From the NCBI RefSeq assembly GCF_055900595.2, contig NZ_CM148325.1: a stretch of DNA of 64,000 nt. One strand, 5' to 3'. The number at the start of each line of letters is the position of its first letter. Position 1 is the stretch's first letter. Made by a program: the position numbers and the translations under genes. The notes beneath the pieces were generated by a model. The model ran no database searches, was not told where the DNA came from, and saw only the letters and a program-made list of their open reading frames with translations. Positions 14,373 to 35,507 of the stretch are shown here, in pieces.

Positions 14373-14384
14373 GAGAATTCTGAT

Positions 14385-14791: not shown

Positions 14792-14805
14792 TTTTAGCTC
14801 CTTAC

Positions 14806-15945: not shown

Positions 15946-15960
15946 TTGACGACTCCTGTC

Positions 15961-17529
15961 TTAGCGTGCCGGCTGAGTAGTCGTGGAAGACTGCTCAAAG
16001 TGATAGCGACCGGTTTTCAGGCTGCTTGGGCCGAGGCGTGCAAACTTGAACATTAAGAACAATTCTGCCACCAGGAACAGGGTATACAGGCCACAAATCA
16101 GCACCATCGAGAAGATGAGGTCGCCTGCGGTCAGTGACGAGTTCGCTACAGCTGTCGGCAGCACTTCACCGATAGCCCAAGGTTGGCGACCATATTCAGC
16201 CACGAACCAGCCCGCTTCTACAGCAATCCACGGCAGCGGAATACCGTACAGTGCGGCGCGCAGCAGCCATTTTTTCTCGCCAATACGGTTGCGGATGACA
16301 CTCCAGAAAGAGAGCGCGATGATTGCCAGCAGCAGGAAGCCACACGCCACCATGATACGGAACGCGAAGTACAGCGGCGCTACACGTGGAATGGAGTCTT
16401 TGGTTGCCTGTTGAATCTGCGCTTCAGTTGCATCCGCCACGTTTGGCGTATAGCGTTTCAGCAGCAGACCGTAACCGAGGTCTTTCTTCATGCTATTGAA
16501 CTGGTCACGAACCGCCTGGTCAGTAGAACCAGAACGCAGTTGCTCGAGCAGAGAGTACGCCTTCATCCCGTTACGGATGCGTTCTTCATGCTGCACCATC
16601 AGCTCTTTCAGGCCGATAACCGGGGTATCCACGGAACGCGTTGCAATGATGCCCAGCGCGTAAGGGATCTGGATCGCAAATTTGTTCGTCTCCTCTTCCT
16701 GATCAGGAATGCCGAACAGAGTAAAGGCAGCAGGTGCAGGTTGCGTTTCCCACTCGGCTTCAATAGCAGCCAGTTTGGTTTTCTGCACGTCGCCCATTTC
16801 ATAACCAGATTCATCACCCAGAACAATAACAGACAGAACGGCAGCCATACCGAAGCTGGCAGCGATAGCAAAGGAGCGTTTAGCAAAGGCGAAGTCACGA
16901 CCTTTCAACATATACCATGCGCTGATACCGAGGATGAACATCGCGCCAGTCACATAACCAGACGCTACAGTGTGAACGAATTTCACCTGAGCAACCGGGT
17001 TAAGCACCAGCTCGGAGAAGCTCACCATCTCCATACGCATAGTTTCAAAGTTGAAATCGGATGCGATTGGGTTTTGCATCCAGCCGTTCGCAACCAGAAT
17101 CCACAGTGCGGACAGGTTTGAACCAAGCGCCACCAGCCAGGTGACACACATATGCTGAACTTTACCCAGACGATCCCAACCGAAGAAGAACAGACCTACA
17201 AAGGTGGATTCGAGGAAGAAGGCCATCAGACCTTCGATTGCCAGCGGCGCACCGAAGATATCCCCTACATAGTGGGAATAGTAAGACCAGTTAGTCCCGA
17301 ACTGGAACTCCATGGTCAGACCGGTTGCCACACCCAGAGCGAAGTTGATACCAAACAACTTGCCCCAGAACTTGGTCATATCTTTATAAATCTGTTTGCC
17401 GGAAAGGACGTAGACCGTTTCCATAATGGCCAGCAGGAACGCCATACCGAGCGTCAGTGGCACAAAAAGGAAGTGGTACATCGCGGTCAAGGCAAACTGT
17501 AAGCGCGACAGTTCGACTATATCTAACAT
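15961..17529 (-). CDS. cydA: cytochrome bd-I ubiquinol oxidase subunit I
   Basis: Matches remembered CydA ([20 protein letters not shown]...); the ORF extends one codon further to 17532. Confidence 0.95.
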
Positions 17530-17866
17530 CATGACTCCTTGCTCATCGCATGAAGACTCCGAGAGTGAACCCCGTTAGAAAGGGTCACACGCATGCCCCA
17601 ATACAAAATTATTTGCTCGCCTCTATCGCTGTCTTTTCCTCAAAAGTGGAAAAGACAATGATAAAAAAGTTACAAATATGTTAATGAATAAACCAAATTG
17701 ATCCCGTAATTATATTACGCCGCAAAATCCTTACAATAAACAGGTTTTTATTGAGCAAATTTGCATTTTTCGACAGTGATCAATTTATAGCGAAATTGTC
17801 ACGCCCCCACCAATTTGATCTACGACAATTTATCGTGTTTTGCAGATTTTTTTCAAGAATTAAAAA

Positions 17867-17880
17867 TTGATTAATATCAA
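17867..17880 (-). promoter_or_regulatory. FNR-consensus site in the cydAB upstream region
   Basis: TTGAT-taat-ATCAA, an exact match to TTGAT-N4-ATCAA, about 340 bp upstream of the cydA start; cydAB is a known FNR/ArcA-regulated operon. Confidence 0.45.
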
Positions 17881-18332
17881 AATCAATCGAATATGTTAAT
17901 TATGTATAAATCATAGACCATTGGTAATTTTATTGTTAATTTATTGTGAAATATTTACGTAACACAATTATTACAATAAAAAGACATAGATAAAAAACCA
18001 GTGTTTTATTTAACAGAATCGCCTTATCAACTTTTTATAATACCAATTGATTAGAGTAGCCAATTTGTTGCTATTTTACATAACATATTTTTATCAAAGT
18101 TAATTGATTGTTGCCTTTATGAGCATCGCCGTAAGACCGCCATGTTATTGTTTCATTTGTAATAATCACCAATAAGTATCGATGAGAGAGATATCGCTTA
18201 ACAGAGGCGACTGTGTCTGCATGAACACAGGCACTTTCGTCTGATAAACGAAAAATGAGCGATTTTTGCAAGTTAGTTTTTCTATAGCCGGGTACGCTGA
18301 GCGCCTCGCTTGATTACAATGAGGTTGCTGCC

Positions 18333-19277
18333 ATGGGTCTTGATAATATAGGTTATGTTGTCAATCGCTTCTCTGGTTGGCCATCAAATGATCCTCTAAA
18401 AACAGATAACGAATCAATGACATCACCCGTGACTGTGCAGGTAATAAAGTTGATTGCCGCCATCCTTGACCCACATCGGATAGTCGTTGGTATCGATACA
18501 CTTTATACAACGCAGCGCAAAACATTTACCTCAGAGGGTCAACAACTCATTGAATCAGCATTGAAAACACTTAATGTGATGAATTTAAATAACCTGGAAA
18601 CAGATCGCGATGAGGAGGGTAACTATCTGGCTTTTGGATATAACGTTGACACTCCTGACAGAATAACCGTTTCTGCTTATAATGAAAAAAAACCTTTCTG
18701 TTATGGCCAATGTCTTTTAATACAGGATGAAGAACCAGATTTATTTAACCTGGTAAAAATTAAAACCTTTGAAGCCAGGCATAATTATGTTTCTAAATTG
18801 ATGAGCGATCCGGAATTTATGTTTAAATTCAGTTATAGCACCCAACAAAATAGATTAGAACCTCATCTTCTGGTTCCCACTTATTTCCCTCTAAAAACAA
18901 ACCAACCGGTTACGCTAGAGGATGTACTGATACTTTATCGTTTCTTTAAAATGAATGGCGATTTTAATATATTAACATCAGATGAATACATGAGTATCAT
19001 GACACCTCTGATGAAGTGTGAGCGTAGTGTCCACGACCATAACAGGTATGTGACGGGCAAAGATGCTCTTCTTCTGGACAATCCTCCGTCTGGTAACCAG
19101 ATATATTTCCATATTTCCCCTGACGAATCAGCAACACTTGTCCTTTATTTTTCAGACAATAACCTTGAATCCTTCGTCTTTGAAAATGATATTCCGAGCC
19201 AGTATCGACATTTCAAAATGTTTACCAATTTAGCACTAGTTATTGATCAGTTAACCGACGCCAATCAAATACTTTAA
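18333..19277 (+). CDS. hypothetical protein (314 aa), AT-rich, no recognisable domain
   Basis: ATG start with GAGG about 10 nt upstream; codon composition visibly more AT-rich than flanking core genes; I recognise no motif. Confidence 0.5.
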   Translation: MGLDNIGYVVNRFSGWPSNDPLKTDNESMTSPVTVQVIKLIAAILDPHRIVVGIDTLYTTQRKTFTSEGQQLIESALKTLNVMNLNNLETDRDEEGNYLAFGYNVDTPDRITVSAYNEKKPFCYGQCLLIQDEEPDLFNLVKIKTFEARHNYVSKLMSDPEFMFKFSYSTQQNRLEPHLLVPTYFPLKTNQPVTLEDVLILYRFFKMNGDFNILTSDEYMSIMTPLMKCERSVHDHNRYVTGKDALLLDNPPSGNQIYFHISPDESATLVLYFSDNNLESFVFENDIPSQYRHFKMFTNLALVIDQLTDANQIL

Positions 19278-19356
19278 TTTTCTATACAGCCCTGTGTAAA
19301 ATATTGCTAATCAGTGCCCGGGGTTGATTTTTATTCCTCACGGTGATATTTAAATC

Positions 19357-19779
19357 ATGACCCCATCTCAGCTCTCTTTTAATACTCTTCCTGTCAATGC
19401 AACATGCACTTCAGAGATAACAGTAAACACACAAAAATTCTCTGACATCCTCTACTCAGTGGGGTATTCCCTAAAGGATCTGGCTTATCTGAGCAGATGT
19501 CTTGCATCATTACACCCGACACTCGCCAAAAACATTTATGAAACGGAAAATCTCAGCGATCAAAAATTACTTTATATAGATTGCCGTAGTACAAATGAAA
19601 TCAAGATAAATATCTTTTTTGGTCAGCAACGAGAAGGATTAATTGAAATTAGTTCTGACACAGTCATTTTTTCGATACTGTCTTCATTGATTGACTCAGC
19701 TATTTCTGAACATCGACATCAAATCACCATTAACGATTCAAATAATTCTGAACTATTTTATGAGGATTATACTGATTAA
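19357..19779 (+). CDS. hypothetical small acidic protein (140 aa)
   Basis: ORF 80 bp downstream of the previous ORF on the same strand; AT-rich; acidic C-terminus; no recognisable motif. Confidence 0.45.
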   Translation: MTPSQLSFNTLPVNATCTSEITVNTQKFSDILYSVGYSLKDLAYLSRCLASLHPTLAKNIYETENLSDQKLLYIDCRSTNEIKINIFFGQQREGLIEISSDTVIFSILSSLIDSAISEHRHQITINDSNNSELFYEDYTD

Positions 19780-20321
19780 ATCCACTCTGTGCGAACCTGT
19801 CCTGCATTTATGCCAGAAGTATTAGAATCTTTGATTAACGTTACTCGTACTGGTAGCACCTTCATGTGCCTCTCTTTTTTACGAACAATCAAAAGAACTA
19901 ACAAAGGGCATAATTCGTATAAATCATTAACCATTTGTTATATTCAACATTTTTTTACATTAAGCAGAGATGAATTGCAGTGAAATTCAAGTTAAATTTT
20001 ACAAAATGTATTACTCATGGCTAAAAAATCTCCCCAAAATGCAAATTAGAAGTTGATCACAATTATCTCAATACATCAAATAAAGTTAATTTTAAAAATT
20101 TAACATTCATGACATTAGTTGACATAACACGCTGAATTAAAATGAGAATTTAAAAACACACTTTAAACAATCATTTCCCGAAAGACATTTTGAAAATAGA
20201 TCAATTGCAACATTACGGTCAGATAAAGACACTCCTCTGATATTAAACCTGTGCCGTTATGAACGGCCATAAATACGACGTGTGTAACTTAATTTACTCT
20301 CTGTCTTACAAAGGATTACCC

Positions 20322-20771
20322 ATGAAGAAAGCAACACTTGTGATTGGCGTTATTGGCGCGGACTGCCATGCAGTAGGCAATAAAGTTCTGGACCGCGTTT
20401 TTAGCAACCATGACTTCAGAGTCATTAATCTGGGCGTAATGGTCAGCCAGGACGAATATATTGATGCTGCCATTGAAACTGGCGCTGACGCGATTGTCGT
20501 CTCCTCTATCTATGGGCATGGCGATATCGATTGTCTGGGCATGCGCGAACGCTGCATCGAGCGTGGGCTGGGTAACATCCTGCTCTATGTGGGCGGTAAC
20601 CTGGTGGTCGGAAAACATGACTTCGCTGACGTGGAAACCAAGTTCAAAGAGATGGGATTTGATCGCGTCTTTTCCCCAAGTCATGACTTAGAAGATGTTT
20701 GTCAGCTGATGGCCCACGATATCAACCAACGTCATGACGTTGATACTCGCATTCTTGAAGAGGCAATCTGA
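20322..20771 (+). CDS. glmS: glutamate mutase sigma (S) subunit, B12-binding
   Basis: [24 protein letters not shown]... aligns with the clostridial GlmS/MutS B12-binding subunit (DxHxxG-type motif in [10 protein letters not shown]); ORF track begins 21 codons earlier. Confidence 0.85.
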
Positions 20772-22159
20772 TGCAAATCGTCTCTGTCGATATTGGATCG
20801 ACGTGGACCAAAGCAGCCCTCTTCACCCGGGAGGGGGACGCGTTAACGTTGGTTAACCACGTTCTGACCCCAACCACCACCCATCATCTGGCGAAGGGGT
20901 TTTTCTCCAGCCTGGACCAGGTGTTAAACGTAGATGATGCCCTCCCCCTGTTAAACAGTGGTGAGGTTGCATTGAAGTATTCCTCCTCTGCCAAAGGTGG
21001 GCTGGCGGTTGCCGCAATGGGATTAGTGCCTTCTATCACTCTGGAAACCGCGAAAGTAACCGCTCACTCTGCGGGTGCTAAAATTGCGCAATATTACGCC
21101 TACAAGCTGAACCGCCGTGATATCCAGGCACTGGAAGAAACGCAGCCCGATATTCTCTTGTTCACCGGCGGCACCGACGGCGGAGAAGAAAGCTACGGAC
21201 TGAATAACGCCCGTGTGCTGGCAGAATCCAAACTCGACTGCGCCATTATTTATGCCGGAAACCGGGATATTCAGGACAAGGTGCAGGAGATCCTCGGGCA
21301 TAAAGACCTGACCATCGTCGACAACGTTCTGCCCGATCTTGACCATCCGAACCCTTTAGCTGCACGCCAGGCTATCTGCGACATATTCCTTAAACGCATC
21401 GTTAAAGGGAAAGGGCTGGATGTCATTGTTGATAAAACAGGCGAAGAACCAATGCCGACACCATGGACGGTCTTTGAACTGGTTAAGGCAATCAGTAACG
21501 TCGATCACAGCTGGAAAGAGTTCATGCTGATCGACATGGGCGGCGCAACCACCGATGTCTATTCCGCCTGTGCCAACACGCTCTCGCCCGACACTGTTTT
21601 ACATGGCGTACCGGAACCCTTCGTAAAACGGACGGTGGAAGGCGATCTGGGAATGCGCGTCTCGGCAATGGTGGTTGGTGAAAGTGCGAAAGAGTTAGTC
21701 AGTGTGAATTTTGCTCAGCAACCCGCACAGTTGGACGCTTTTTATCATTACCTCCGTCATCTAGTCGCTCATCCCGACTACTTACCCGCGAATGCAGATG
21801 AAAAATATTTCGATACCGTCCTGGCCGGACTGTGTGTGGGTTATGCCACCGAAAGACATGCGGGCACCAAAAAAGAGGTCTGCACCTGCGTCGGCAATGT
21901 CGATTTACAGATGGGACGTGACCTGACAACCGTGCGTAAAGTCGTGGGTTCCGGCGGATGGCTCTCGCGTGCCAGTCAGTTCGATATGCATCGCTGGTTG
22001 AAATACCGCGAGTTAAACGACGACGGTAAACGCATTCTCTTACCGACCGAATTTGAATATTACCGCGATTCCCGGGGGCTATTACCACTGCTGGCAAACG
22101 TCGCCAGAGTCGATCCGCTGGCCGCCGCGCGCACCAGTATTCAATGCTTAACCCTATAA
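20771..22159 (+). CDS. glmL: glutamate mutase-associated protein GlmL/MutL
   Basis: 462 aa ORF between the S and E subunit genes, start overlapping the glmS stop; same position and size as clostridial glmL. Confidence 0.75.
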   Translation: MQIVSVDIGSTWTKAALFTREGDALTLVNHVLTPTTTHHLAKGFFSSLDQVLNVDDALPLLNSGEVALKYSSSAKGGLAVAAMGLVPSITLETAKVTAHSAGAKIAQYYAYKLNRRDIQALEETQPDILLFTGGTDGGEESYGLNNARVLAESKLDCAIIYAGNRDIQDKVQEILGHKDLTIVDNVLPDLDHPNPLAARQAICDIFLKRIVKGKGLDVIVDKTGEEPMPTPWTVFELVKAISNVDHSWKEFMLIDMGGATTDVYSACANTLSPDTVLHGVPEPFVKRTVEGDLGMRVSAMVVGESAKELVSVNFAQQPAQLDAFYHYLRHLVAHPDYLPANADEKYFDTVLAGLCVGYATERHAGTKKEVCTCVGNVDLQMGRDLTTVRKVVGSGGWLSRASQFDMHRWLKYRELNDDGKRILLPTEFEYYRDSRGLLPLLANVARVDPLAAARTSIQCLTL

Positions 22160-22177
22160 CAATTAAGGCTGCAATCA

Positions 22178-23623
22178 ATGGAACTTCGAAATAAGAAATT
22201 AACCCATGACGAATTCATGACCGAGCGGCAACAGGTATTGAAAACCTGGGAAACCGGCAAGGATGTTGAAAACTTTGAAGATGGCGTTAAATACCAACAA
22301 ACCATTCCTGAGCATAAACGCTTCTCTCTTGCCCTGCTGAAAGCAGACAAGGAAGGTAAAACCCTTAGCCAACCGCGCGCAGGCGTGGCGCTGATGGACG
22401 AACACATCGAACTACTGAAAACACTACAAGAAGAGTGCGATCTGCTGCCGAGCACTATCGATGCATATACCCGTCTGAATCGGTACGAAGAAGCGGCTGT
22501 AGGGATTAAAAAATCCATCGAAGCCAGAACCTCTAAACTGAACGGTTTACCGGTAGTTAACCACGGCGTCGCAGCTTGCCGTCGCCTCACCGAAACTCTG
22601 CAAAAACCGCTACAGATCCGCCACGGCACGCCAGATGCGCGTCTGCTGGCTGAAATCTCGATGGCCAGCGGCTTTACCAGTTATGAAGGCGGCGGCATTT
22701 CCTACAATATTCCGTATGCCAAGCGCGTAACGCTGGAAAAATCGATCCGCGACTGGCAGTACTGCGATCGTTTAATGGGGATGTACGAAGAACACGGGAT
22801 CCGCATCAACCCCGAACCGTTTGGCCCACTAACGGGTACGCTGATCCCGCCGTTTATCTCGCACTCTATCGCAATAATCGAAGGCTTGCTGGCACTGGAA
22901 CAGGGTGTGAAGTCTATCACCGTTGGTTATGGTCAGGTCGGTAGCCTGACGCAGGATGTTGCGGCGATCCAGTCTCTGCGGGAACTTGCACACGAATACT
23001 TTCAGAGCTATGGCTATACCGACTACGAATTAAGTACCGTGTTTCACCAGTGGATGGGCGGCTTTCCGGAAGACGAATCGAAAGCGTTCGCCATTATCTC
23101 CTGGGGTGCTGCCGTCGCGGGGATGTCTGGTGCTACCAAAGTCATCACCAAAAGTCCGCACGAAGCCTGGGGCATCCCGACTGCTGCTGCCAACATTCAG
23201 GGGCTAAAAGCCTCCCGCCAGATGCTCAACATGGTCAACGAGCAGAAATTCCCGCCGTGCCCGGCGGTTGAACTAGAAATTGAACTGATTAAGAGCGAGG
23301 TTCGCGCGGTACTGAACAAAGTGTTCGAACTGGGTAATGGTGATATTGCGCGCGGTACGGTGCTGGCATTTGAAGCGGGCGTACTGGATGTGCCGTTTGC
23401 GCCAGCCGCCTGCAACGCAGGCAAAATTCTTCCGGTCCGTGACAACACTGGCGCGATTCGCGTACTGGAGGCCGGAGCCGTTCCATTGCCAAAAGATATT
23501 CTCGACCTCCACCACGATTACGTTGCTGAACGCGCGCGCTTTGAAGGACGCCAACCGACATTCCAGATGGTTGTAGATGACATCAATGCTGTATCCCACA
23601 GTAAATTAATAGGAAGACCATAA
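22178..23623 (+). CDS. glmE: glutamate mutase epsilon (E) subunit
   Basis: 481 aa ORF, size and position matching clostridial GlmE; flanked by glmS/glmL and methylaspartase. Confidence 0.85.
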   Translation: MELRNKKLTHDEFMTERQQVLKTWETGKDVENFEDGVKYQQTIPEHKRFSLALLKADKEGKTLSQPRAGVALMDEHIELLKTLQEECDLLPSTIDAYTRLNRYEEAAVGIKKSIEARTSKLNGLPVVNHGVAACRRLTETLQKPLQIRHGTPDARLLAEISMASGFTSYEGGGISYNIPYAKRVTLEKSIRDWQYCDRLMGMYEEHGIRINPEPFGPLTGTLIPPFISHSIAIIEGLLALEQGVKSITVGYGQVGSLTQDVAAIQSLRELAHEYFQSYGYTDYELSTVFHQWMGGFPEDESKAFAIISWGAAVAGMSGATKVITKSPHEAWGIPTAAANIQGLKASRQMLNMVNEQKFPPCPAVELEIELIKSEVRAVLNKVFELGNGDIARGTVLAFEAGVLDVPFAPAACNAGKILPVRDNTGAIRVLEAGAVPLPKDILDLHHDYVAERARFEGRQPTFQMVVDDINAVSHSKLIGRP

Positions 23624-24864
23624 TGAAAATAAAACAGGCCCTTTTTACCGCTGGCTACTCCTCATTCTATTTCGATGATCAGCAGGCGATAAAAAACGGA
23701 GCGGGTCACGACGGTTTTTTTTATACCGGGGAGCCAGTAACACAGGGGTTTAACGCCGTACGTCAGGCCGGGGAGTGCGTTTCGGTTCAGTTGATTCTGG
23801 AAAACGGTGCGGTCGCCGTAGGCGACTGTGCTGCCGTACAGTATTCCGGGGCAGGTGGTCGCGATCCACTGTTCCTCGCAGAGCACTTTATTCCGTTCCT
23901 CAACGACCATATCAAGCCATTACTGGTAGGCCGCGATGTGGATGCTTTCCTGCCGAATGCCCGTTTCTTCGACAAATTGCGTATTGACGGCAACTTGCTA
24001 CATACCGCCGTGCGCTACGGATTATCACAGGCGCTGCTTGATGCTACCGCGCTGGCAACCGGCCGTCTGAAAACTGAAGTGGTCTGTGATGAATGGCAGT
24101 TGCCACGCGTGGCGGAATCCATTCCATTATTTGGTCAGAGCGGCGACGATCGATATATCGCTGTCGATAAGATGATCCTTAAGGGCATCGACGTGCTGCC
24201 CCATGCGCTGATTAATAACGTCGAAGAGAAACTGGGCTTTAAAGGTGAAAAACTGCGCGAATATGTCCGCTGGCTGTCGGATCGCATTCTGAGCAAGCGC
24301 ACCAGCGCACGCTACCACCCTACCCTGCACATCGATGTATACGGCACTATTGGTCTGATCTTCGATATGGATCCGCTTCGCTGTGCGCAATACATCGCCA
24401 GTCTGGAAAAAGAGGCGCAAGGCCTGCCGCTCTACATTGAGGGGCCGGTCGATGCCGGTAACAAGCCCGATCAAATCCGCCTGCTGACCGCGATTACCAA
24501 AGAGCTGACGCGCCTCGGTTCCGGCGTGAAAATCGTGGCCGATGAATGGTGTAACACCTACCAGGATATTGTTGATTTCACTGATGCCGCCAGTTGCCAC
24601 ATGGTGCAAATCAAAACCCCGGATCTGGGCAGTATTCACAACATCGTCGATGCAGTTCTTTATTGCAACAGCCACAGCATGGAAGCGTACCAGGGCGGCA
24701 CCTGCAATGAAACTGATGTCAGTGCCCGCACCTGTGTCCACGTCGCCCTTGCTGCTCGCCCCATGCGTATGCTGGTAAAACCAGGGATGGGCTTTGACGA
24801 AGGCCTCGATATCGTCTTCAACGAAATGAATCGTACTATCGCGCTGTTGCAGGCTAAGGATTAA
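23623..24864 (+). CDS. mal: 3-methylaspartate ammonia-lyase (methylaspartase)
   Basis: 413 aa enolase-superfamily-like ORF; start overlaps the glmE stop (TAATG). Confidence 0.85.
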   Translation: MKIKQALFTAGYSSFYFDDQQAIKNGAGHDGFFYTGEPVTQGFNAVRQAGECVSVQLILENGAVAVGDCAAVQYSGAGGRDPLFLAEHFIPFLNDHIKPLLVGRDVDAFLPNARFFDKLRIDGNLLHTAVRYGLSQALLDATALATGRLKTEVVCDEWQLPRVAESIPLFGQSGDDRYIAVDKMILKGIDVLPHALINNVEEKLGFKGEKLREYVRWLSDRILSKRTSARYHPTLHIDVYGTIGLIFDMDPLRCAQYIASLEKEAQGLPLYIEGPVDAGNKPDQIRLLTAITKELTRLGSGVKIVADEWCNTYQDIVDFTDAASCHMVQIKTPDLGSIHNIVDAVLYCNSHSMEAYQGGTCNETDVSARTCVHVALAARPMRMLVKPGMGFDEGLDIVFNEMNRTIALLQAKD

Positions 24865-24867
24865 CAA

Positions 24868-26238
24868 ATGGCTCGTTCTTTTAAAGTCTTATCGCCAACG
24901 GCAATCCTCGGGTATGGATTCCCGGAAGAGAGCTTCCGCAAAGCGATGGCAGAATCGCCCGATCTGATCGCCGTTGATGCAGGCTCTTCCGATCCTGGCC
25001 CCCACTACCTCGGGGCGGGCAAACCGTTTACCGATCGCGCAGGGGTCAAGCGCGATCTACGCTATATGATCACCGCAGGCGTGCAAAATAATATACCGGT
25101 AGTGATCGGAACGGCCGGCGGTTCTGGTGCCGCTCCACACCTGGAGTGGTGCCGAGAAATAATTCATGAGATTGCCCGGGAAGAGCACCTCGCGTTCTCG
25201 ATGGCGCTGATCCCGGCAGACGTTGACAAAGCCATCGTCCACCAGGCGCTGGATAACGGCAAAATCACGGCGCTGGATTTTGTCCCGCCGTTAACCCACG
25301 ACGCGATTGACGAAAGTACGTATATCGTCGCGCAAATGGGCATCGAACCCTTCCAGCAGGCGCTGAAAGAAGGCGCGCAAGTGGTGCTGGGCGGGCGCGC
25401 TTACGACCCGGCCTGCTTTGCTGCGCTACCGATCATGCAAGGCTTTGATGAAGGTCTGGCGCTGCATTGTGGGAAAATCCTTGAATGCGCGGCAATCGCC
25501 GCAACGCCCGGCTCAGGCTCTGACTGTGCGATGGGCATCATTGATGACAACGGCTTTACGCTGAAGACATTTAATCCGAAGCGTAAATTTACCGAAACGT
25601 CAGCGGCTGCACACACACTGTATGAGAAATCCGATCCCTACTTTCTGCCAGGACCTGGCGGCGTGCTAAACCTGAAAGGTTGCACATTTAAAGCGATCAA
25701 TGATGGCGAAGTTTACGTCAGCGGTTCTAAGCATGAAGAAACGCCCTATGCCCTGAAACTGGAAGGTGCGCGGCGGGTGGGTTTCCGCTGTTTGACCATC
25801 GCCGGAACGCGCGACCCGATCATGATCGCCGGGATCGATAACATCATCGATGAAGTCAAAACCAGCGTTTCGCGTAATCTGTCCTTAGACGATGACAGCA
25901 TTCGCATCAATTTCCACCTGTACGGCAAAAACGGGGTGATGGGCGACCATGAACCGATGCAAACTGCCGGGCATGAGCTGGGGATTGTCCTTGATGTAGT
26001 TGCACCGACCCAGGATATTGCCAATAGCGTTTGCTCGCTGGTGCGCTCTACCATGCTGCACTACGGCTATGAAAACCGCATCGCTACCGCAGGCAACCTG
26101 GCGTTCCCGTTCTCCCCTTCTGATATCCAGGGCGGGCCGGTATACGAATTTTCCATATATCACCTGATTGAAGCCAACGACGCTCTGCGTTTTGATTTCC
26201 ATATTGAACAGGTGACGCCAGAAGGAGTTCAGGCATGA
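24868..26238 (+). CDS. uncharacterised protein, possibly DUF1446 (AtuA-like) family
   Basis: 456 aa ORF 3 nt after mal; the family assignment is from memory of the DUF1446/DUF4387 gene pairing and is unverified. Confidence 0.55.
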   Translation: MARSFKVLSPTAILGYGFPEESFRKAMAESPDLIAVDAGSSDPGPHYLGAGKPFTDRAGVKRDLRYMITAGVQNNIPVVIGTAGGSGAAPHLEWCREIIHEIAREEHLAFSMALIPADVDKAIVHQALDNGKITALDFVPPLTHDAIDESTYIVAQMGIEPFQQALKEGAQVVLGGRAYDPACFAALPIMQGFDEGLALHCGKILECAAIAATPGSGSDCAMGIIDDNGFTLKTFNPKRKFTETSAAAHTLYEKSDPYFLPGPGGVLNLKGCTFKAINDGEVYVSGSKHEETPYALKLEGARRVGFRCLTIAGTRDPIMIAGIDNIIDEVKTSVSRNLSLDDDSIRINFHLYGKNGVMGDHEPMQTAGHELGIVLDVVAPTQDIANSVCSLVRSTMLHYGYENRIATAGNLAFPFSPSDIQGGPVYEFSIYHLIEANDALRFDFHIEQVTPEGVQA

Positions 26239-26552
26239 AACAGTCAATTGTCTCACTGGCGCAAGTCATTCGTTCGAAAAATGCCGGACCTTACGAACTG
26301 GTTTTAGATATTTTATTTAAAACCAAAGAAAACTATGAGCGAGTAAAATCATCAGGGCAATTAACCCCAGAACTGATTGCGCGCTTATATCATGTTGAAC
26401 CTGACTTTATTCATCGTATTGTCTGGTTTGATCCTTCTAACGCAGTAAAAATTGTCATGCCACGAGATATTATCTCCGGGAATGTAGGTGACAATGATGT
26501 CTATGGCGCACAGCAACATGCACCTTTATTAAATATGAGTTTCGATTTGTAA
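26235..26552 (+). CDS. uncharacterised small protein, possibly DUF4387 family
   Basis: 105 aa ORF whose ATG overlaps the upstream stop (ATGA); contains an RSKNAGP-like segment I associate with DUF4387. Confidence 0.5.
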   Translation: MKQSIVSLAQVIRSKNAGPYELVLDILFKTKENYERVKSSGQLTPELIARLYHVEPDFIHRIVWFDPSNAVKIVMPRDIISGNVGDNDVYGAQQHAPLLNMSFDL

Positions 26553-26712
26553 AAATCCGAACACTTTTAGCCAACTGACATCCCGTCACTTATTGCAGCT
26601 CAACACTTCAGCTATTTGTAAGGTTGTTATAGCAGGTAGATGCCTGAATCTCTATTCAGGCATCCACTTCTCCTGATTCTGATTTATCGCCGTGCACCTG
26701 ATGGAGGAAAAA

Positions 26713-27993
26713 ATGAAGAAAATAAGTTTAACCACGATGATTCTTTTGGCGCTGGTACTTGGAATGATTATCGGCGTAGTGCTCAATAACACTGCTTCAC
26801 CGGAAACAGCAAAACTCTATGCGCAAGAAATATCGATATTCACGACGATTTTCTTACGACTGATAAAAATGATTATCGCTCCGTTAGTGGTCTCTACCCT
26901 GGTGGTAGGTATTGCTAAAATGGGCGATGCCAAAGCCCTTGGTCGTATTTTTTCTAAAACACTCTTTTTATTTATTTGCGCCTCATTGCTGTCAATTGCC
27001 TTAGGCTTGATAACGGTAAATTTCTTCATGCCAGGCACAGGAATTAATTTTGTTGCACACGGTGCCGAAACCACCGGAGTGGTCGCGTCAGAACCCTTTA
27101 CACTAAAAGTATTTATTTCGCATGCTTTCCCCACCAGCATTGTCGATGCCATGGCGCACAATGAAATTTTGCAAATCGTGGTGTTCTCAATTTTCCTCGG
27201 CTGTAGCCTGACGGCGATTGGTGAGAAAGGCAGCGCCATCGTTCACGCCTTAGATTCGCTGGCACATGCCATGTTAAAGCTCACTGGCTACGTCATGCTC
27301 TTCGCTCCCCTGACCGTATTCGCCGCTATTTCAGCATTGATTGCTGAACGAGGACTGGCAGTTATGGTGAGCGCCGGGATCTTTATGGGTGAATTTTATT
27401 TCACCATGTTATTACTTTGGGTGCTGCTTATCGGTCTGGCCATCGTTTATGTCGGCCCCTGCATCAGACGCCTGACCCGCGCCCTTTCTGAACCCGCCCT
27501 GCTGGCATTTACCACATCCAGTTCTGAAGCTGCTTTTCCGGGAACGCTTGAAAAACTGGAGCAATTTGGCGTTTCCCCCAAAATTGCCAGCTTTGTCTTA
27601 CCCATTGGCTACTCATTTAATCTCGTTGGATCAATGGCCTACTGCTCCTTCGCCACAGTTTTCATCGCCCAGGCCTGCAATATCCATTTATCCATCGGTG
27701 AGCAAATCACCATGCTGTTGATCCTGATGTTGACCTCGAAAGGAATGGCTGGCGTACCACGCGCCTCAATGGTGGTTATCGCCGCCACGCTCAACCAGTT
27801 CAATATTCCGGAAGCGGGGCTGATCTTGCTGATGGGCGTTGATCCGTTCCTTGATATGGGGCGTTCCGCGACAAACGTCATGAGCAACGCAATGGGCGCT
27901 GCGATGGTGAGTCGGTGGGAAGGCGAACATTTCGGCGAGGGTTGTCGGGGTAAAGCATTAAAACCCAATGAATCGAACGTTGCTCTGCCCTGA
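26713..27993 (+). CDS. dicarboxylate/amino acid:cation symporter (GltP-like)
   Basis: Start placed at MKKISLT with GGAGG 5 nt upstream; polytopic; conserved DAACS segments (IKMIIAPLVVSTLVVGIA, SSSEAAFP, PIGYSFNLVGS) resemble GltP. Confidence 0.8.
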   Translation: MKKISLTTMILLALVLGMIIGVVLNNTASPETAKLYAQEISIFTTIFLRLIKMIIAPLVVSTLVVGIAKMGDAKALGRIFSKTLFLFICASLLSIALGLITVNFFMPGTGINFVAHGAETTGVVASEPFTLKVFISHAFPTSIVDAMAHNEILQIVVFSIFLGCSLTAIGEKGSAIVHALDSLAHAMLKLTGYVMLFAPLTVFAAISALIAERGLAVMVSAGIFMGEFYFTMLLLWVLLIGLAIVYVGPCIRRLTRALSEPALLAFTTSSSEAAFPGTLEKLEQFGVSPKIASFVLPIGYSFNLVGSMAYCSFATVFIAQACNIHLSIGEQITMLLILMLTSKGMAGVPRASMVVIAATLNQFNIPEAGLILLMGVDPFLDMGRSATNVMSNAMGAAMVSRWEGEHFGEGCRGKALKPNESNVALP

Positions 27994-28100
27994 GGGGGAT
28001 CTTAAGAAATCAGAAGCCAATGACTACGCATTTTTATAAGCCGGATCATGAAGTTAGACGGCAATTAAGTAACACTAACGTTTAAGGTGAAAAGTGAAAT

Positions 28101-29753
28101 ATGTCCAAACCATTTATCTGGCAAGAACCGTTTCTACAAAATAAAGACGGTACAGAATATACATTAATTAGCGATCAACATATTACAGTAACGGAATTAG
28201 ACGGCGAAGAAGTAATAAAAATCGCTCCTGAAGCATTAACGCTGCTTGCCCGGCAGGCATTTTATGAAGCCTCTTTTTTCTTACGTTCCGCTCATTTGCA
28301 ACAGGTCGCCAGCATTCTTAACGATCCGCAGGCCAGCAGTAATGATAAATACGTTGCGTTGCAGTTATTACGTAATGCTGAAGTCTCAGCAAAAGGGGTA
28401 TTACCCAACTGTCAGGATACCGGCACCGCAACTATTGTTGCCAGTAAAGGGCAACAGATATGGACGGGAGGTAACGACGCTGAAGCCTTAAGCAAAGGCA
28501 TTTACAGTACTTTCCAGGAAAATAATCTGCGCTTTTCACAAAATGCGCCGCTGGATATGTATACCGAAGTCAATACGCAAACCAATCTTCCGGCGCAGAT
28601 TGATATCAGCGCTGTCGCTGGTAATGAGTACCATTTTCTCTGTGTTAATAAAGGGGGCGGCTCCGCCAATAAAGCTGCACTTTATCAGGAAACCAAATCC
28701 TTATTGCAACCAGAAAAACTGACCGCATTTTTAATCGACAAAATGAAATCGTTGGGCACGGCCGCCTGCCCGCCCTACCACATCGCCTTTGTCGTCGGAG
28801 GGCTTTCAGCCGATCAAACCTTAAAAGTTGCCAAGCTGGCCTCTACGAAATATTACGACAATTTGCCCACCAGCGGAAACGAGCAGGGACAAGCATTCCG
28901 TGATATTGAGCTGGAAAAAGCGTTGCTCGAAGCCAGTCAGCAATTTGGTATTGGTGCGCAATTTGGGGGTAAATATTTCGCTCATGATATTCGCGTCATT
29001 CGTCTGCCGCGTCACGGTGGCTCCTGCCCGATAGCTATGGCGCTCTCCTGTTCTGCCGATCGCAATATCAAAGCCAAAATTAACAAGCACGGTATCTGGC
29101 TGGAAAAACTCGAACACAATCCGGGGCAATATATTCCAGCCTCATTGCGGGAAGAAAATCACTCGCTACATGTACACCTGGATCTAAACCGTCCGTTGCG
29201 TGACGTGATGCAGGATCTCGCCAGATTACCGGTAGGTACCCGCGTGTCGTTAAGTGGTCCCATCGTAGTGGCGCGCGATATCGCCCACGCAAAAATAAAA
29301 GCGCGGCTGGATAGCGGCGAATCGATGCCGGATTACCTGAAGCATCATATTGTCTATTACGCTGGCCCGGCGAAAACACCGGAGAACATGGCCTGCGGTT
29401 CACTGGGTCCAACCACGGGCGGTCGAATGGACGGTTATGTCGAAACCTTCCAGGCGGCTGGCGGCAGTCTGGTAATGTTATCGAAAGGTAACCGCAGCCA
29501 GCAGGTCACCGATGCCTGTCACAAACATGGCGGCTTCAATCTGGGAAGTATTGGCGGTGCAGCTGCGTTACTGGCGCAAGAATATGTCAAAAGTCTGCGT
29601 TGCCTGGAATACCCGGAGCTGGGTATGGAGGCGGTGTGGATGATGGAAGTGGAAAATCTGCCCGCATTCATCCTGGTTGATGATAAAGGCAATAATTTCT
29701 TTAGCCAGTTTGAGCAGCAACACCGCTGCGCCAGTTGCCCTGCGGGACATTAA
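28101..29753 (+). CDS. fumD: class I fumarate hydratase paralog, probable mesaconase
   Basis: 550 aa ORF alignable along its length to remembered E. coli FumA ([34 protein letters not shown]); the fumD name follows a published O157:H7 mesaconase description, recalled from memory. Confidence 0.8.
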
Positions 29754-29762
29754 GGAAAATGA

Positions 29763-30365
29763 ATGGAAGCGCGAATTTCAACTGAACGGCATGTGCAGCG
29801 CCAGCAGAAATTGAAGGAACAGGTCGATACGCGCGTCGCGGCGGCGATAGAGAAAAAAGGGATCTTGATTGTTTTCACCGGCAACGGCAAAGGGAAATCC
29901 ACTGCCGCGTTTGGTACTGTAACGCGCGCGGTGGGCCATGGCAAAACGGTGGGGGTTGCGCAGTACATCAAGGGGCAATGGGACAACGGCGAATACAATC
30001 TTCTCCAGCCGCTGGGAGTGGAGTTTCATATTATGGGAACCGGTTTTACCTGGGAGACACAGAACCGGCAAGCGGATATCGATGCGGCGAAAGAGGTCTG
30101 GTCGGAAAGCAAACGGATGCTGGCTGACAAGCGTTACGACTTAGTGGTGCTTGATGAGCTCACCTATATGCTGGCTTACCATTATCTGGATACAGAAGAA
30201 GTGATCACTTCTCTGCAAAACCGTCCGGCACAACAAAGTGTCATTGTCACCGGACGCGGTTGCCACAGTCAGATATTAAAAATGGCGGATACGGTAAGTG
30301 AAATCCGCCCCGTCAAACATGCTTTTGATAACGGCATTCAGGCCCAGCCGGGGATCGACTGGTAA
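29763..30365 (+). CDS. cob(I)yrinic acid a,c-diamide / cobalamin adenosyltransferase (BtuR/CobA-like)
   Basis: 200 aa ORF with GILIVFTGNGKGKSTAAFG P-loop and overall similarity to remembered E. coli BtuR; a paralog located in the B12-dependent operon. Confidence 0.85.
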   Translation: MEARISTERHVQRQQKLKEQVDTRVAAAIEKKGILIVFTGNGKGKSTAAFGTVTRAVGHGKTVGVAQYIKGQWDNGEYNLLQPLGVEFHIMGTGFTWETQNRQADIDAAKEVWSESKRMLADKRYDLVVLDELTYMLAYHYLDTEEVITSLQNRPAQQSVIVTGRGCHSQILKMADTVSEIRPVKHAFDNGIQAQPGIDW

Positions 30366-30368
30366 TAA

Positions 30369-30396
30369 CTGCGCCTGGCATCCCGCCAGGCGCAGG
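30369..30396. terminator. bidirectional hairpin between the BtuR-like gene and the convergent LysR gene
   Basis: ctgcgcctggc-atccc-gccaggcgcag perfect inverted repeat followed by gtttt; occupies the 33 bp gap between the two stop codons. Confidence 0.55.
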
Positions 30397-30398
30397 TT

Positions 30399-31304
30399 TT
30401 ACATCTCCTGCGGTACGACCGATTTCGCCAGCAACCATTCACGAAATTGCTGCAAGTGCGGAGAGTCAGACTTCTCTTCCTGCCACGTCATAATAAAACG
30501 ATTACCGGTACGAATAGGCACATCACAGGGAATCACCATATCGCCACTATCCAAATCATGTTGAATAGCGAACCGTGGTAACAGCGCCACGCCGAGATTA
30601 GAGCGCACGGCGGCAATCAGCATTGAAAGCAAATCGAAACGTGGTCCGTTATTGACCAGCGGACTGCTAACGCCAGATAAAGCAAACCACTCTTCCCAGC
30701 CAGTAATACGGGTGCTTTGATGCAGAAGTGGTAACTCAGTAAGCAGTTCTGCCACTGACAGTTTTTGATCGGACATTGCAAGCAAACTGCCGCTGCATAC
30801 CGGCAAAATCTCCTCTTCAAAGAGATATTCTACTTCCGCCCAGGGCGCGCAAAAATTTTCGCGCATAATGACAGCATCGTACTCCCGATTAAGAAAATCG
30901 CCGTTATTAGCTAAAGAATGAATATTAACAATAATATCGGGATGTAACTTTGTGAATTCATGTAAATTTGGGATTAACCAGTGGGTACTAAAAGTAGGAT
31001 TAACGGCAAGTTCAATAACCTGAACCGTAGGCTGCCATGTCATAATCGTATTGGTATCGCGCTCCAGCTTATTTAATGTTTCTTTTACTATCCCCAGGTA
31101 ATACTTCCCTGCATCATTAAGAAAAATGCGTTTTTTAGAGTGTGAAAATAACGGAGTATGTAAAAATTCCTCCAGCGCACTTACTTGTCTGAATACAGCA
31201 CTTTGGGTTAACGCTAACTCCTCTGCCGCTCTGGTATAACTTTCATGTCGTGCGACGACCTCAAAAGTCACCAGCAGCTCCGTTTTAGGTATTTTTCCTC
31301 GCAT
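30399..31304 (-). CDS. LysR-family transcriptional regulator
   Basis: N-terminal HTH (FEVVARHESYTRAAEELALTQSAVFRQVSALEE) and LysR substrate-binding body; start placed at MRGKIPK (ORF track starts 10 codons earlier). Confidence 0.8.
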   Translation of the reverse strand: MRGKIPKTELLVTFEVVARHESYTRAAEELALTQSAVFRQVSALEEFLHTPLFSHSKKRIFLNDAGKYYLGIVKETLNKLERDTNTIMTWQPTVQVIELAVNPTFSTHWLIPNLHEFTKLHPDIIVNIHSLANNGDFLNREYDAVIMRENFCAPWAEVEYLFEEEILPVCSGSLLAMSDQKLSVAELLTELPLLHQSTRITGWEEWFALSGVSSPLVNNGPRFDLLSMLIAAVRSNLGVALLPRFAIQHDLDSGDMVIPCDVPIRTGNRFIMTWQEEKSDSPHLQQFREWLLAKSVVPQEM

Positions 31305-31893
31305 AATGCCGTCCGTGAAAAAATAACAATTCAAAAATTATTTTATAAAAAACAGTAGCACTAATGAATATCATAATTCAAATAAACAAACCAGTCAGCT
31401 ATATGTCTAACCAGGAAAATAAAGTGACAATAATCCTAAAACAGGAATTTCACCTCAGTTATCCGCATGCAATACTTTAAAGCTATTATTGCAAGAATAT
31501 TATTCATATACATGAATATACTCTAAATAAGTCAAGTTGCAGGAAGGGAACAAATAATGAATATCCAGAAGCTTACATAAGTAAGTGACCTGGGTGAGCG
31601 AACATCGATGCAGCACATGCAACTTGAATTATGACAAGTATACAATGATAAATTTATATACCCTATGTTATATATTATCTATGTCCGGTTAAATTGAATG
31701 AGTCATAGCCTTAAAAGACTTCACAAAAGATAATTCCTCTTTAACAATAAGCCAGATTTACCACTTGTAAAACTTGCTATCGCTGCATACACTACGCGCG
31801 TTTTCTTTCCCTTTTGCTGGCTGCTGACCGGAAAGACAAAATTACCCTCGCAATACAGGGGGTTGATTAACGTCTATATTTCAGGACAGCGTT

Positions 31894-33291
31894 ATGCATC
31901 ATCTTTCAAGGCTTGATAAAGCCTTTCTGCGCAAAGGGATCCAACTTTCCCGCGCCAACAATATTGTTTCATTATGTCGTCCATCAGGAGCCAGTGCCCG
32001 CGTACTGCTGCCGGACGAACTGCCGCTGGAAGAAAAAGCAGTGACACAACTGCTTGATTTTGCAGATGTGAAGCTACCAGACCACCCAGGTTATGTGCGC
32101 CAGACGTGCGCGACGCCAGATTTTCATCCCGGCAATGGCGTCCCCGTTGGCGCGGTGGTGGCCTCAACGCCGGATTTAGTCATTCCCGCCGCCATCGGCA
32201 CCGATATTTCTTGTGGCATGCGGCTGCTGACGACCGGATTAACACTTGAGCAAGCCGAAGCGCATAAAGACGTCATCGCTCAGCGGTTAACGCAAGTGCT
32301 ACTGCAAAATGAGCGCGATGTTCCGTTATCCGCACAGGCGTTCACCGCGCTTTTTGATGGCGGACCGGCAGATTGCATGTCGGCCTTGCCATCAGCAGGT
32401 CTCTGGACACGTACAAATATCCCCCGGATGACGCAAGAGATTGACCGCTGCATTGGGCTTAAAGAGCATAACAGTCATTCGCGTTATGCCCCACCCGCCC
32501 TGCTGGCAACGGACCGCGCATTACTCCGCGATCCTTGTCTTGGTACGCCGGGTTCAGGTAATCATTTTATTGAACTTCAGGTCGTTGATAACGTGGTTGA
32601 TCGCCATGTGGCCTGGCAACAAGGGCTGAAAACAGGCGATATTGTGGTGATGATCCACAGTGGATCACGAGATGTTGGCTTTTACGTCGGAAGACGCTGG
32701 ATGGATCGCGCCCGTGCTGAATGGCCCACCGGACATAAACATCCACAAAGCGGGTTATATGGTCTGGCAGGCGGACTGGCGGAGGAATATCTACAAGCGA
32801 TAGGAATGGCGGCGCGTTACGCGTGGTTAAATCGCGTGACAATTGCCGAAATGGTGCGCGTATGTCTTGCCAATCTCTTTCATCAGGACAATTCGCATCT
32901 GGTGGTGGATGTGCCACATAACATCATCCTTCGCGAGCATGAAATGAATATTCATCGCAAAGGCGCAACACCGGCACGAGTGGGCAATCTGGCGTTAATC
33001 CCCGGTTCAATGGGCGATTATTCGTGGCTTGCGGTTGGTTGCGGCAACCCGGAGTGGCTGTGGTCATGCAGTCACGGAGCAGGACGCAGCCAGCGTCGGC
33101 AGGCCATGCGCTCACGCGCGACTGAAGAGTCAACGCTGCCGTGGCAATGCGTCACATTGCGCGAAGAACGACGTCTTGAAGAAGCGCCAGCGGCTTATAA
33201 AGATATTGGTCCGGTTATCGAAGCTCAACAAGAAGCCGGATTAATTCAGCCAGCGGTCAGATTTCGACCGTGGTTAACGTTTAAAGCATAA
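31894..33291 (+). CDS. RtcB-family RNA ligase paralog
   Basis: 465 aa ORF with RtcB hallmarks (GTDISCGMRLL, GSGNHFIELQ, HSGSRDVG, CSHGAGRS); N-terminus longer than remembered E. coli RtcB, so the start is uncertain. Confidence 0.75.
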   Translation: MHHLSRLDKAFLRKGIQLSRANNIVSLCRPSGASARVLLPDELPLEEKAVTQLLDFADVKLPDHPGYVRQTCATPDFHPGNGVPVGAVVASTPDLVIPAAIGTDISCGMRLLTTGLTLEQAEAHKDVIAQRLTQVLLQNERDVPLSAQAFTALFDGGPADCMSALPSAGLWTRTNIPRMTQEIDRCIGLKEHNSHSRYAPPALLATDRALLRDPCLGTPGSGNHFIELQVVDNVVDRHVAWQQGLKTGDIVVMIHSGSRDVGFYVGRRWMDRARAEWPTGHKHPQSGLYGLAGGLAEEYLQAIGMAARYAWLNRVTIAEMVRVCLANLFHQDNSHLVVDVPHNIILREHEMNIHRKGATPARVGNLALIPGSMGDYSWLAVGCGNPEWLWSCSHGAGRSQRRQAMRSRATEESTLPWQCVTLREERRLEEAPAAYKDIGPVIEAQQEAGLIQPAVRFRPWLTFKA

Positions 33292-33388
33292 AAAAGGCCA
33301 TCATACGATGGCCAACCATGTCGAAACCGACAGCCCTTCGCCATTCCTGTAGAGGGAAGCGGCGAGGGCTATTTCTTATTACAGATAT
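33292..33388 (-). ncRNA. sdhX: candidate SdhX sRNA (sucD 3'UTR plus terminator)
   Basis: About 75 nt 3'UTR after the sucD stop ending in a ggccatcgtatgatggcc hairpin plus U-tract on the minus strand; SdhX is known to derive from the sucD 3'UTR, but I cannot verify the sequence from memory. Confidence 0.4.
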
Positions 33389-34258
33389 TTATTTCAGAAC
33401 AGTTTTCAGTGCTTCACCGATATCCGCCAGGCTGCGAACGGTTTTCACGCCTGCGGCTTCCAGAGCAGCGAATTTCTCATCCGCAGTCCCTTTCCCACCG
33501 GCAATGATGGCACCCGCGTGGCCCATACGTTTGCCTTTCGGCGCAGTTACACCAGCGATGTAACCTACAACTGGCTTGGTAACGTGCTCTTTGATGTACG
33601 CAGCCGCTTCTTCTTCAGCGCTACCGCCGATCTCACCGATCATCACGATCGCTTCGGTCTGCGGATCTTTTTCGAACATTTCGAGGATGTCGATAAAGTT
33701 AGAGCCAGGGATCGGGTCGCCGCCGATACCAACACAGGTCGACTGACCGAAACCGTAATCCGTGGTCTGTTTAACCGCTTCATAGGTCAGTGTACCGGAA
33801 CGGGAAACGATACCCACTTTACCCGGTTTGTGAATGTGACCAGGCTGGATGCCGATTTTACATTCACCCGGAGTGATAACGCCCGGGCAGTTCGGGCCGA
33901 TCATACGAACGCCTGCTTCATCCAGTTTCACTTTCACGGTCAGCATATCCAGCGTCGGGATGCCTTCAGTGATGGTGATAATCAGTTTGATGCCTGCGTC
34001 GATGGCTTCCAGAATGGAGTCTTTGCAGAACGGTGCTGGTACGTAGATAACAGAAGCGGTAGCGCCGGTGGCAGCAACGGCTTCACGCACGGTGTTGAAC
34101 ACCGGCAGACCGAGGTGGGTAGTACCGCCTTTACCAGGGGTTACGCCGCCAACCATTTTAGTGCCGTATGCAATGGCCTGTTCAGAGTGGAAAGTCCCCT
34201 GGCTACCAGTAAAGCCCTGGCAGATAACCTTGGTGTTTTTATCAATTAAAATGGACAT
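33389..34258 (-). CDS. sucD: succinyl-CoA synthetase alpha subunit
   Basis: 289 aa ORF matching remembered SucD ([33 protein letters not shown]...). Confidence 0.95.
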
Positions 34259-35424: not shown

Positions 35425-35507
35425 GTGTTCTGTCCATCCTTCAGTAATCGTTATCTTTTAAACCGTAGACCGAATATTTCGTATCGCTTCCGGGTATTGT
35501 CGGTCAC

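Follow-up and report, generated by a model that had tools for sequence, protein, structure and literature searches.

The closest described counterpart of the locus considered here is the glm gene cluster reported by Kronen & Berg (PLoS One 2015, PMC4682846), who recorded it in 26.5% of Escherichia coli and 90.6% of O157:H7, characterized its FumD (ECs0757) biochemically as a mesaconase/fumarase, and noted, downstream of mal, a DUF1446 gene without known function, no citramalate lyase being found. Our locus fills some 15 kb between cydA and sucD in a stretch of 64,000 nucleotides (nt) from contig NZ_CM148325.1 of RefSeq assembly GCF_055900595.2 (this whole stretch is termed the window, and positions count from its first letter). 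Taken as a whole, the block is best explained, with a probability of about 0.85, as a methylaspartate-pathway cluster for glutamate catabolism at its usual site between cydAB and sucABCD. The identity of the glm cluster is already known from the 2015 description; the original prediction, made from the letters of the window, had correctly linked both the cluster and FumD to O157:H7.

The O157:H7 reference (strain F8797) carries the same genes in the same order (glmS–glmL–glmE–mal–DUF1446–DUF4387–transporter–fumD–cobA/cobO, with a convergent lysR) at the same chromosomal site. It is collinear with the window over positions 14000..31322 at 96.8% nucleotide identity, and the cluster proteins are 97.8 to 100% identical (97.8% for FumD), as against just 85% for two hypothetical proteins encoded ahead of glmS, here called hyp314 and hyp140. 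Unlike O157:H7, the window also has an intact rtcB and a 456-bp spacer between lysR and sucD (31323..33247).

Another known counterpart is the clostridial pathway of Clostridium tetanomorphum and C. tetani (glm-mal-mesAB-citDEF), which turns glutamate into pyruvate and acetate by the same reactions and has homologous GlmS, GlmL (MutL), GlmE, and Mal proteins. The two differ in the mesaconase (single-chain class I fumarase FumD in the window, two-subunit MesAB in clostridia), in the regulator (LysR-type versus GntR-type), and in the cleavage of citramalate, for which the window has CmlAB (DUF1446 plus DUF4387) in place of an acyl-carrier-protein-dependent lyase of the CitDEF type.

Pathway genes and the predicted citramalate lyase pair

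Enzymes were assigned with NCBIfam equivalog models scoring above their curated cut-offs and with the RefSeq annotation of strain E600003 (stool, Bangladesh), one of eight complete E. coli genomes that are 99.9 to 100% identical to the window (a single 1-bp indel separates E600003 from it, in the hyp140–glmS spacer at 19780..20321). According to the open reading frame (ORF) list and the NCBIfam scans, a plus-strand gene block runs from 18333 to 30365 between cydA and lysR. From glmS to lysR, the features are as follows:

20322..20771, plus strand: glmS, glutamate (methylaspartate) mutase subunit S, B12-binding (NF002612, 251 bits, cut-off 110)
20771..22159, plus strand: glmL (mutL), mutase accessory/reactivating protein (NF040745, 507 bits, cut-off 475; TIGR01319, 882 bits)
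22178..23623, plus strand: glmE, glutamate mutase subunit E (TIGR01503, 859 bits, cut-off 390)
23623..24864, plus strand: mal, methylaspartate ammonia-lyase (TIGR01502, 544 bits, cut-off 286)
24868..26238, plus strand: cmlA, predicted large subunit of a coenzyme A-independent citramalate lyase (420 of 456 residues, or 92.1%, identical to PDB 9erq_A/9evf)
26235..26552, plus strand: cmlB, predicted small subunit of the citramalate lyase (DUF4387), 105 amino acids (aa) (88 of 104 residues, or 85% by hand count, identical to PDB 9erq_B, E = 5e-57)
26713..27993, plus strand: dicarboxylate/amino acid:cation symporter (DAACS), presumed glutamate importer (DctA, 314 bits, and GltP, 304 bits, both below cut-offs)
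28101..29753, plus strand: fumD, mesaconase of the class I fumarase type (NF011921, 1272 bits, cut-off 1060)
29763..30365, plus strand: cobO, cob(I)yrinic acid a,c-diamide/cob(I)alamin adenosyltransferase (NF004637, 295 bits, cut-off 185; TIGR00708, 246 bits versus 168)
30369..30395, no strand: hairpin at the point where cobO and lysR converge (11-bp stem, 9 G-C pairs, −28.3 kcal/mol, z = −6.1)
30399..31304, minus strand: LysR-type regulator, GcvA-like (NF008352, 221 bits, below cut-off)

The glutamate-fermentation genes named in the original prediction are all present by these two sources. Both mutase subunits, GlmL, Mal, FumD, and a citramalate-cleaving enzyme (the last by homology only) are found together, and GlmS has the B12-binding DxHxxG motif (DCHAVG, residues 14 to 19). 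Core genes have GC contents of 49 to 55%, and the ratio of nonsynonymous to synonymous divergence (dN/dS) lies between 0.00 and 0.15 for all pathway genes (0.019 for glmE), indicating that they are maintained by selection. In most enterobacterial loci, lysR adjoins cobO.

Spacing within the cluster is tight, as the original prediction had noted (glmS/glmL, −1 nt; glmL/glmE, +18; glmE/mal, −1; mal/cmlA, +3; cmlA/cmlB, −4; fumD/cobO, +9), with wider gaps of 160 nt ahead of the symporter gene and 107 nt ahead of fumD. The genes from glmS to cmlB are translationally coupled, in a unit that probably extends as far as cobO and is closed by the hairpin at 30369..30395, itself likely a bidirectional terminator. 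Both the probable operon organization and the strong hairpin had been proposed in the original prediction (which ended the hairpin one position later, at 30396), and both hold up.

The reaction left without an enzyme in 2015 was the cleavage of citramalate. RefSeq labels the cmlA product an “acyclic terpene utilization AtuA family protein” (AtuA/DUF1446, 456 aa) and the cmlB product “DUF4387,” whereas the depositors of 9erq/9evf name the chains “Citramalate lyase, subunit A (cmlA)” and “subunit B (cmlB).” The window pair resembles these Raoultella planticola proteins over their full length (92% identity for A and 85% for B) and shares their two-gene order with a 4-nt overlap. In addition, “Cml (cmlAB)” of R. 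planticola, a gift of the Berg laboratory, has been used as a citramalate lyase (bioRxiv 10.64898/2026.01.16.699985). We therefore assign the AtuA/DUF1446 and DUF4387 pair, by homology, as the predicted citramalate lyase CmlAB. This identification would supply the step missing in 2015 and render the pathway complete on paper.

In a scan with the CmlA protein, limited to one genome per species (61 loci, mapped by tblastn), cmlB always lies directly downstream of cmlA (58 loci from several phyla), and the conserved core of these loci is glmS–glmL–glmE–mal–cmlA–cmlB, an arrangement that extends even to Aromatoleum, Telmatospirillum, Bacillota, Desulfotomaculum, and Dictyoglomaceae.

Proposed operation, regulation, and physiological role

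The enzyme steps that we propose are those known from homologous enzymes, while transport and regulation are inferred. Glutamate would be imported by the DAACS symporter and converted to (2S,3S)-3-methylaspartate by the adenosylcobalamin (AdoCbl)-dependent mutase GlmS plus GlmE, kept active by GlmL. Methylaspartate ammonia-lyase would then release NH3 to give mesaconate, which the Fe-S class I fumarase FumD would hydrate to (S)-citramalate, and CmlAB would split (S)-citramalate into pyruvate and acetate. Because E. coli is unable to make B12 de novo, CobO would act on salvaged corrinoid, adenosylating it and so supplying the AdoCbl cofactor.

A single candidate for a regulatory site stands out upstream of the cluster:

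20188..20208, plus strand: invariant 21-nt element TTTTGAAAATAGATCAATTGC, a TTGA-N7-TCAA dyad of the T-N11-A type, ~115 to 135 nt upstream of glmS

This element is identical in eight glmS upstream regions (from Escherichia, Klebsiella, Salmonella, Citrobacter, and Pseudescherichia) within an AT-rich spacer that is otherwise divergent, and it occurs once in the window. Dyads of the T-N11-A type are used by LysR regulators. The element is accordingly a candidate operator for the LysR-type regulator of the cluster, which probably controls the glmS promoter through it. Identity as a canonical FNR site was rejected, given a half-site spacing of 5 rather than 4 and no second copy in the cluster. Rfam (E ≤ 1) detects no B12 riboswitch or other known RNA between 17 and 36 kb, the only matches being naRNA4/REP copies in the sucC–sucB spacer.

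The physiological function of the pathway in E. coli is proposed here from gene content, and several points weigh against reading the block as a glutamate-catabolic cluster. For the O157:H7 glm genes, no expressing condition was found, nor was there growth on glutamate (Kronen & Berg, PMC4682846). The symporter scores under the equivalog cut-offs of both GltP and DctA; Fig. 5 of PMC4682846 labels it GltP. Furthermore, we found no primary paper on CmlAB in the searchable literature (DUF1446, DUF4387, and AtuA in combination with citramalate), such that the assignment rests on the names of the PDB deposits plus one user of the enzyme. For EHEC, no additional publications on methylaspartate turned up.

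Some of the same observations would be expected if the main role of the cluster were instead the salvage of exogenous C5-dicarboxylates or 3-methylaspartate (mesaconate, citramalate, and methylaspartate, from the gut or from plants), with the mutase dispensable or the pathway reversed and glutamate fermentation not the main role. E. coli and other enterobacteria did not grow on glutamate, which also did not induce expression (PMC4682846); the symporter is an equivalog of neither GltP nor DctA; and FumD, Mal, and CmlAB alone would take methylaspartate or mesaconate to pyruvate and acetate. We nevertheless consider salvage an unlikely main role: glmS–glmL–glmE are translationally coupled to mal–cmlAB and co-conserved with them in Proteobacteria, Bacillota, and Dictyoglomota, purifying selection is strong (as seen from the dN/dS of 0.019 in glmE), and a dedicated adenosyltransferase has been kept.

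A further argument against salvage is that, in some E. coli, a hut operon has been inserted beside the cluster. In FUJ80154, the inserted genes (hutH, hutG, hutI, hutD, a permease gene, and hutU; 16083..23824 of the FUJ80154 locus) lie between lysR and rtcB, and roughly 150 genomes share the boundary of this insertion (as estimated from the spacer boundary). The end product of the hut pathway is glutamate, and the hut block would thus feed the adjacent glutamate pathway.

Boundaries and modules of the block

Boundaries were determined by blastn, with strain HS-02 as the K-12-type reference. In HS-02, the mannosylglycerate genes mngB–mngA–mngR occupy the cydA–sucD interval, as the original prediction had stated for K-12. 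Homology between the window and HS-02 stops at 17911 and restarts at 33284, which defines a differing, noncollinear segment at 17912..33283 (15,372 bp in the window versus 5,924 bp in HS-02) and bears out the claim that a different block stands here in place of mngRAB. The left junction, previously held not to be placeable closer than about 18.3 kb, can be set at 17911/17912, ~420 bp left of 18333 and at the end of the conserved region upstream of cydA; homology of Klebsiella, Salmonella, and Citrobacter to the window ends at nearly the same place (17907–17908). The right junction falls within the final 8 nt of the RtcB ORF, and the K-12 mngRAB locus, which likewise fills the cydA–sucD interval, has an identical right backbone boundary just after mngR. 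Outside the block, cydB and cydA (up to 17532) and sucD and sucC (from 33389) are all on the minus strand. The original prediction had also called for a look at whether mngRAB sits elsewhere in the genome: a query in which the rtcB segment was joined to 1.2 kb of mngA matched the E600003 chromosome at rtcB only, leaving no mngA elsewhere on that chromosome at megablast sensitivity. Features at the edges of the block and outside of the core are as follows:

17533..17911, no strand: conserved cydA upstream (regulatory) region, backbone common to K-12-type E. coli and other genera
18333..19277, plus strand: hyp314, Escherichia-only ORFan of 314 aa, GC content 37.5%
19357..19779, plus strand: hyp140, ORFan of 140 aa, partner of hyp314 (RefSeq: hypothetical)
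31323..31893, no strand: AT-rich spacer upstream of rtcB (module boundaries at 31322/31323 and 31778/31779)
31894..33291, plus strand: orphan RtcB-family RNA ligase, 465 aa (Pfam PF01139, residues 63 to 464, E = 7e-95)
33284..33388, no strand: sucD-proximal spacer in which the backbone resumes (blastn homology to HS-02 restarts at 33284)
33296..33313, minus strand: sucD terminator hairpin (terminator-like site, 33313–33296)

Farther into the suc operon, the window has ~195 bp in the sucC–sucB (odhB) spacer (35474..35668) that are absent from O157:H7, HS-02, and strain 7/2 and consist of REP-type repeats, scored by Rfam as naRNA4 (78.8 and 50 bits).

The 15 kb is modular and falls into two paired ORFans confined to Escherichia, the conserved core, and the orphan rtcB. 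It had been taken in the original prediction for one unit, a view that does not survive the restriction of the hyp pair to Escherichia and the absence of rtcB from O157:H7 and other sampled genera.

(i) Module 1 (~18170..19925; GC content, 35 to 37%) consists of hyp314 and hyp140; neither E. whittamii nor Escherichia sp. E1V33 has it, nor does any other sampled genus. Among 5.8 billion proteins, homologues of hyp314 form only five clusters, all from Escherichia. No match to hyp314 exists in Pfam, NCBIfam, PADLOC, or PHROG, and no family match to hyp140 in NCBIfam, PADLOC, or PHROG; an AlphaFold2 model of hyp314, built from a 6-sequence alignment, reaches a pLDDT of 44.5. Both evolve rapidly, with dN/dS values of 0.41 for hyp314 and 0.40 for hyp140 and proteins 85% identical to those of O157:H7, yet the ORFs keep their length even at 62% identity. 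The pair is probably a separate addition to the locus. As a candidate scar of its insertion, we considered a 28-nt imperfect direct repeat (17904–17931/19917–19944, 82% identical), which was rejected because it is lineage-specific and because homology to E. whittamii continues across the left copy.

(ii) Module 2 is the core from glmS to lysR, reaching 31322. In E. whittamii and Escherichia sp. E1V33, the cluster lies between cydA and sucD with no full-length match to the symporter gene or to cobO (16% of cobO is covered), which suggests partial decay or a variant layout.

(iii) Module 3 is rtcB together with the spacer ahead of it, a separate module that is outside the glutamate pathway. Homology of O157:H7 and FUJ80154 to the window stops at 31322, restarting in FUJ80154 at 31779, and the full-length spacer upstream of rtcB occurs, as a single copy, in 144 genomes. 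The spacer also holds a long hairpin at 31505..31655, imperfectly paired and with arms of 25 nt (−35.5 kcal/mol, z = −4.5), that has no Rfam match. The protein has the full RtcB domain, and the catalytic (metal- and GMP-binding His/Cys) motifs GTDISCGMR, GSGNHF, HSGSR, PHN, and SHGAGR are recognizable by eye in its translation; it falls short of the cut-offs for PRK09588 (207 versus 407) and TIGR03073 release_rtcB (169 versus 272). No rtcA, rtcR, or prfH ORF lies beside the gene, which places it outside rtcBA-rtcR and prfH-rtcB2 operons. It is present in 296 of 5,426 E. coli genomes, always as a single copy at this locus, and is absent from every other genus sampled; in O157:H7, the region is reduced to remnants of 57 nt and ~40 nt. 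The closest relatives outside of Escherichia, from Betaproteobacteria and Pseudomonas, are 60 to 67% identical. A phage origin was rejected, the best phage matches being ~30% identical.

The slot between lysR and sucD has further occupants: a TPR-protein gene in other E. coli and, as read from the sequences, SumT-type methyltransferase-like and PocR-type regulator-like ORFs in Citrobacter, Klebsiella, and Salmonella (SumT is named in Fig. 5 of PMC4682846). In Citrobacter amalonaticus S646, mngB–mngA–mngR (1..4817 of that locus) flank the glm cluster on the side facing cydA, immediately upstream of glmS, showing that the mng module moves around the interval in another genus, too.

History of the cluster at the cydA–sucD site

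On balance, the core cluster was probably ancestral at this site and was then repeatedly lost, possibly with flank-guided exchange, and the K-12-like state is best read as loss by deletion rather than the O157 state as gain. The arrangement in strain 7/2 (cydA–hyp–hyp–glm cluster–lysR–rtcB–mngB–mngA–mngR–sucD) is central to this interpretation. Because the glm cluster and mngBAR stand side by side in 7/2, the block is not an allelic replacement of mngRAB; rtcB and mngA occur together in about 136 genomes. The window corresponds to the 7/2 arrangement minus 5,609 bp of mngBAR, and the deletion junction is spanned by the last two codons and the stop of rtcB (…GTTTAA, followed by AGCATAAAAAAGG). 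The same junction is found in O157:H7 with one single-nucleotide polymorphism, suggesting that mngBAR was deleted once, in a common ancestor. The lineage of the window would then have lost mngBAR and kept the orphan rtcB, and O157:H7 would have lost rtcB later.

Evidence from other genera points the same way. The order cydB–cydA–[glmS..lysR]–sucD–sucC is found in at least five genera, among them four Klebsiella species, many Citrobacter species, Pseudescherichia vulneris, Salmonella enterica subspp. arizonae and diarizonae, E. whittamii, and cryptic Escherichia, and the cydA–glmS spacer outside of E. coli is a constant ~1.2 kb. Island genes of the window are 97 to 99% identical to those of O157:H7, 7/2, and FUJ80154, as are the cyd and suc genes, and synonymous divergence (dS) is 0.03 to 0.14 for island genes versus 0.085 to 0.105 for the flanks. 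In a set of 23 genomes, the distances averaged over GlmL, GlmE, Mal, and CmlA rise and fall with those of CydA (Pearson 0.72, a value reached in 0 of 2,000 Mantel permutations). Together with the coexistence with mng and a host-like GC content, the cross-genus synteny, flank-like dS, and co-varying distances argue for an old resident and not a recent insert.

Some findings count against simple vertical inheritance. The cluster is patchy, carried by about 20% of E. coli (1,116 of 5,426 complete genomes, or 20.6%, hold at least 80% of window positions 17000..34000), and it sits at other genomic positions in Enterobacter, Lelliottia, Buttiauxella, Yersinia, Hafnia, and Morganella. In comparison with E. 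whittamii, it is more diverged (88 to 90% nucleotide identity) than its flanks (96%). Moreover, the same synteny would result if the cluster had been regained by homologous recombination in the conserved cyd and suc flanks.

That the block is a recent genomic island of ~15 kb, inserted as one unit between cydA and sucD and displacing mngRAB, is improbable, more so than the salvage role. In its favor, mngBAR of K-12-type strains lie exactly where the block lies (this part of the claim of an insert in place of mngRAB stands), the block is in only about 20% of E. coli genomes, segments at 17.5 to 20.3 kb and 31.3 to 31.9 kb are AT-rich (31 to 38% GC), and the nearest relatives of rtcB outside of Escherichia are the distant ones of Betaproteobacteria and Pseudomonas. 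But both blocks are present in 7/2 (and rtcB with mngA in the ~136 genomes above), and the cluster is at the same site in five genera, so that the replacement itself does not stand; in addition, dS equals that of the flanks, distances co-vary with CydA, and the block resolves into three separately distributed modules. Nor does it look like a mobile island. Divergence and composition do not deviate, the core genes being host-like in GC and AT-richness being confined to the module of the hyp pair and to the spacers. The block has neither an integrase nor a transposase ORF, the repeats at its junctions are short, weak, and unconvincing, and no tRNA gene lies between 10 and 42 kb of the window, in agreement with the original prediction that integrase, tRNA-adjacent insertion, and direct repeats are missing. 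The nearest tRNA genes (five tRNA-Lys(UUU) and two tRNA-Val(UAC)) are on the minus strand at 7433..8433. This tRNA cluster is ~9.5 kb from the left junction, and its anticodon arms matched the TTGA-N7-TCAA pattern.

Least probable is that the cluster is a silent, decaying relic of cryptic genes with no present function in E. coli: it would account for the lack of expression or enzyme activity in O157:H7 under any laboratory condition tried (PMC4682846) and for the loss from most E. coli lineages, but all ORFs are intact and equal in length to their O157:H7 orthologues, dN/dS is 0.00 to 0.15 with dS up to 0.14, and the invariant upstream element is kept across genera.

More tentatively, the cydA–sucD interval could be an ancient slot for cassettes that several genera have in common, with the B12-dependent pathway as its ancestral occupant and with hut, mng, rtcB, sumT/pocR-like genes, and the hyp pair swapped by flank-guided recombination. 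If so, the ~150 E. coli with the hut insertion would encode, in one contiguous stretch, a complete pathway that leads from histidine by way of glutamate to pyruvate, acetate, and ammonia, and the TTGA-N7-TCAA element with LysR would be the switch of the pathway, which would explain why its expression has never been seen.

To the 2015 description, the present analysis adds exact breakpoints on both sides, the CmlAB identity missed by RefSeq annotation, the dissection of the block into modules, the argument for loss in K-12, and a conserved candidate operator as a guide for expression studies. From its gene content, the cluster would equip roughly one in five E. coli, most O157:H7 among them, with a B12-dependent route from glutamate to pyruvate, acetate, and ammonia.

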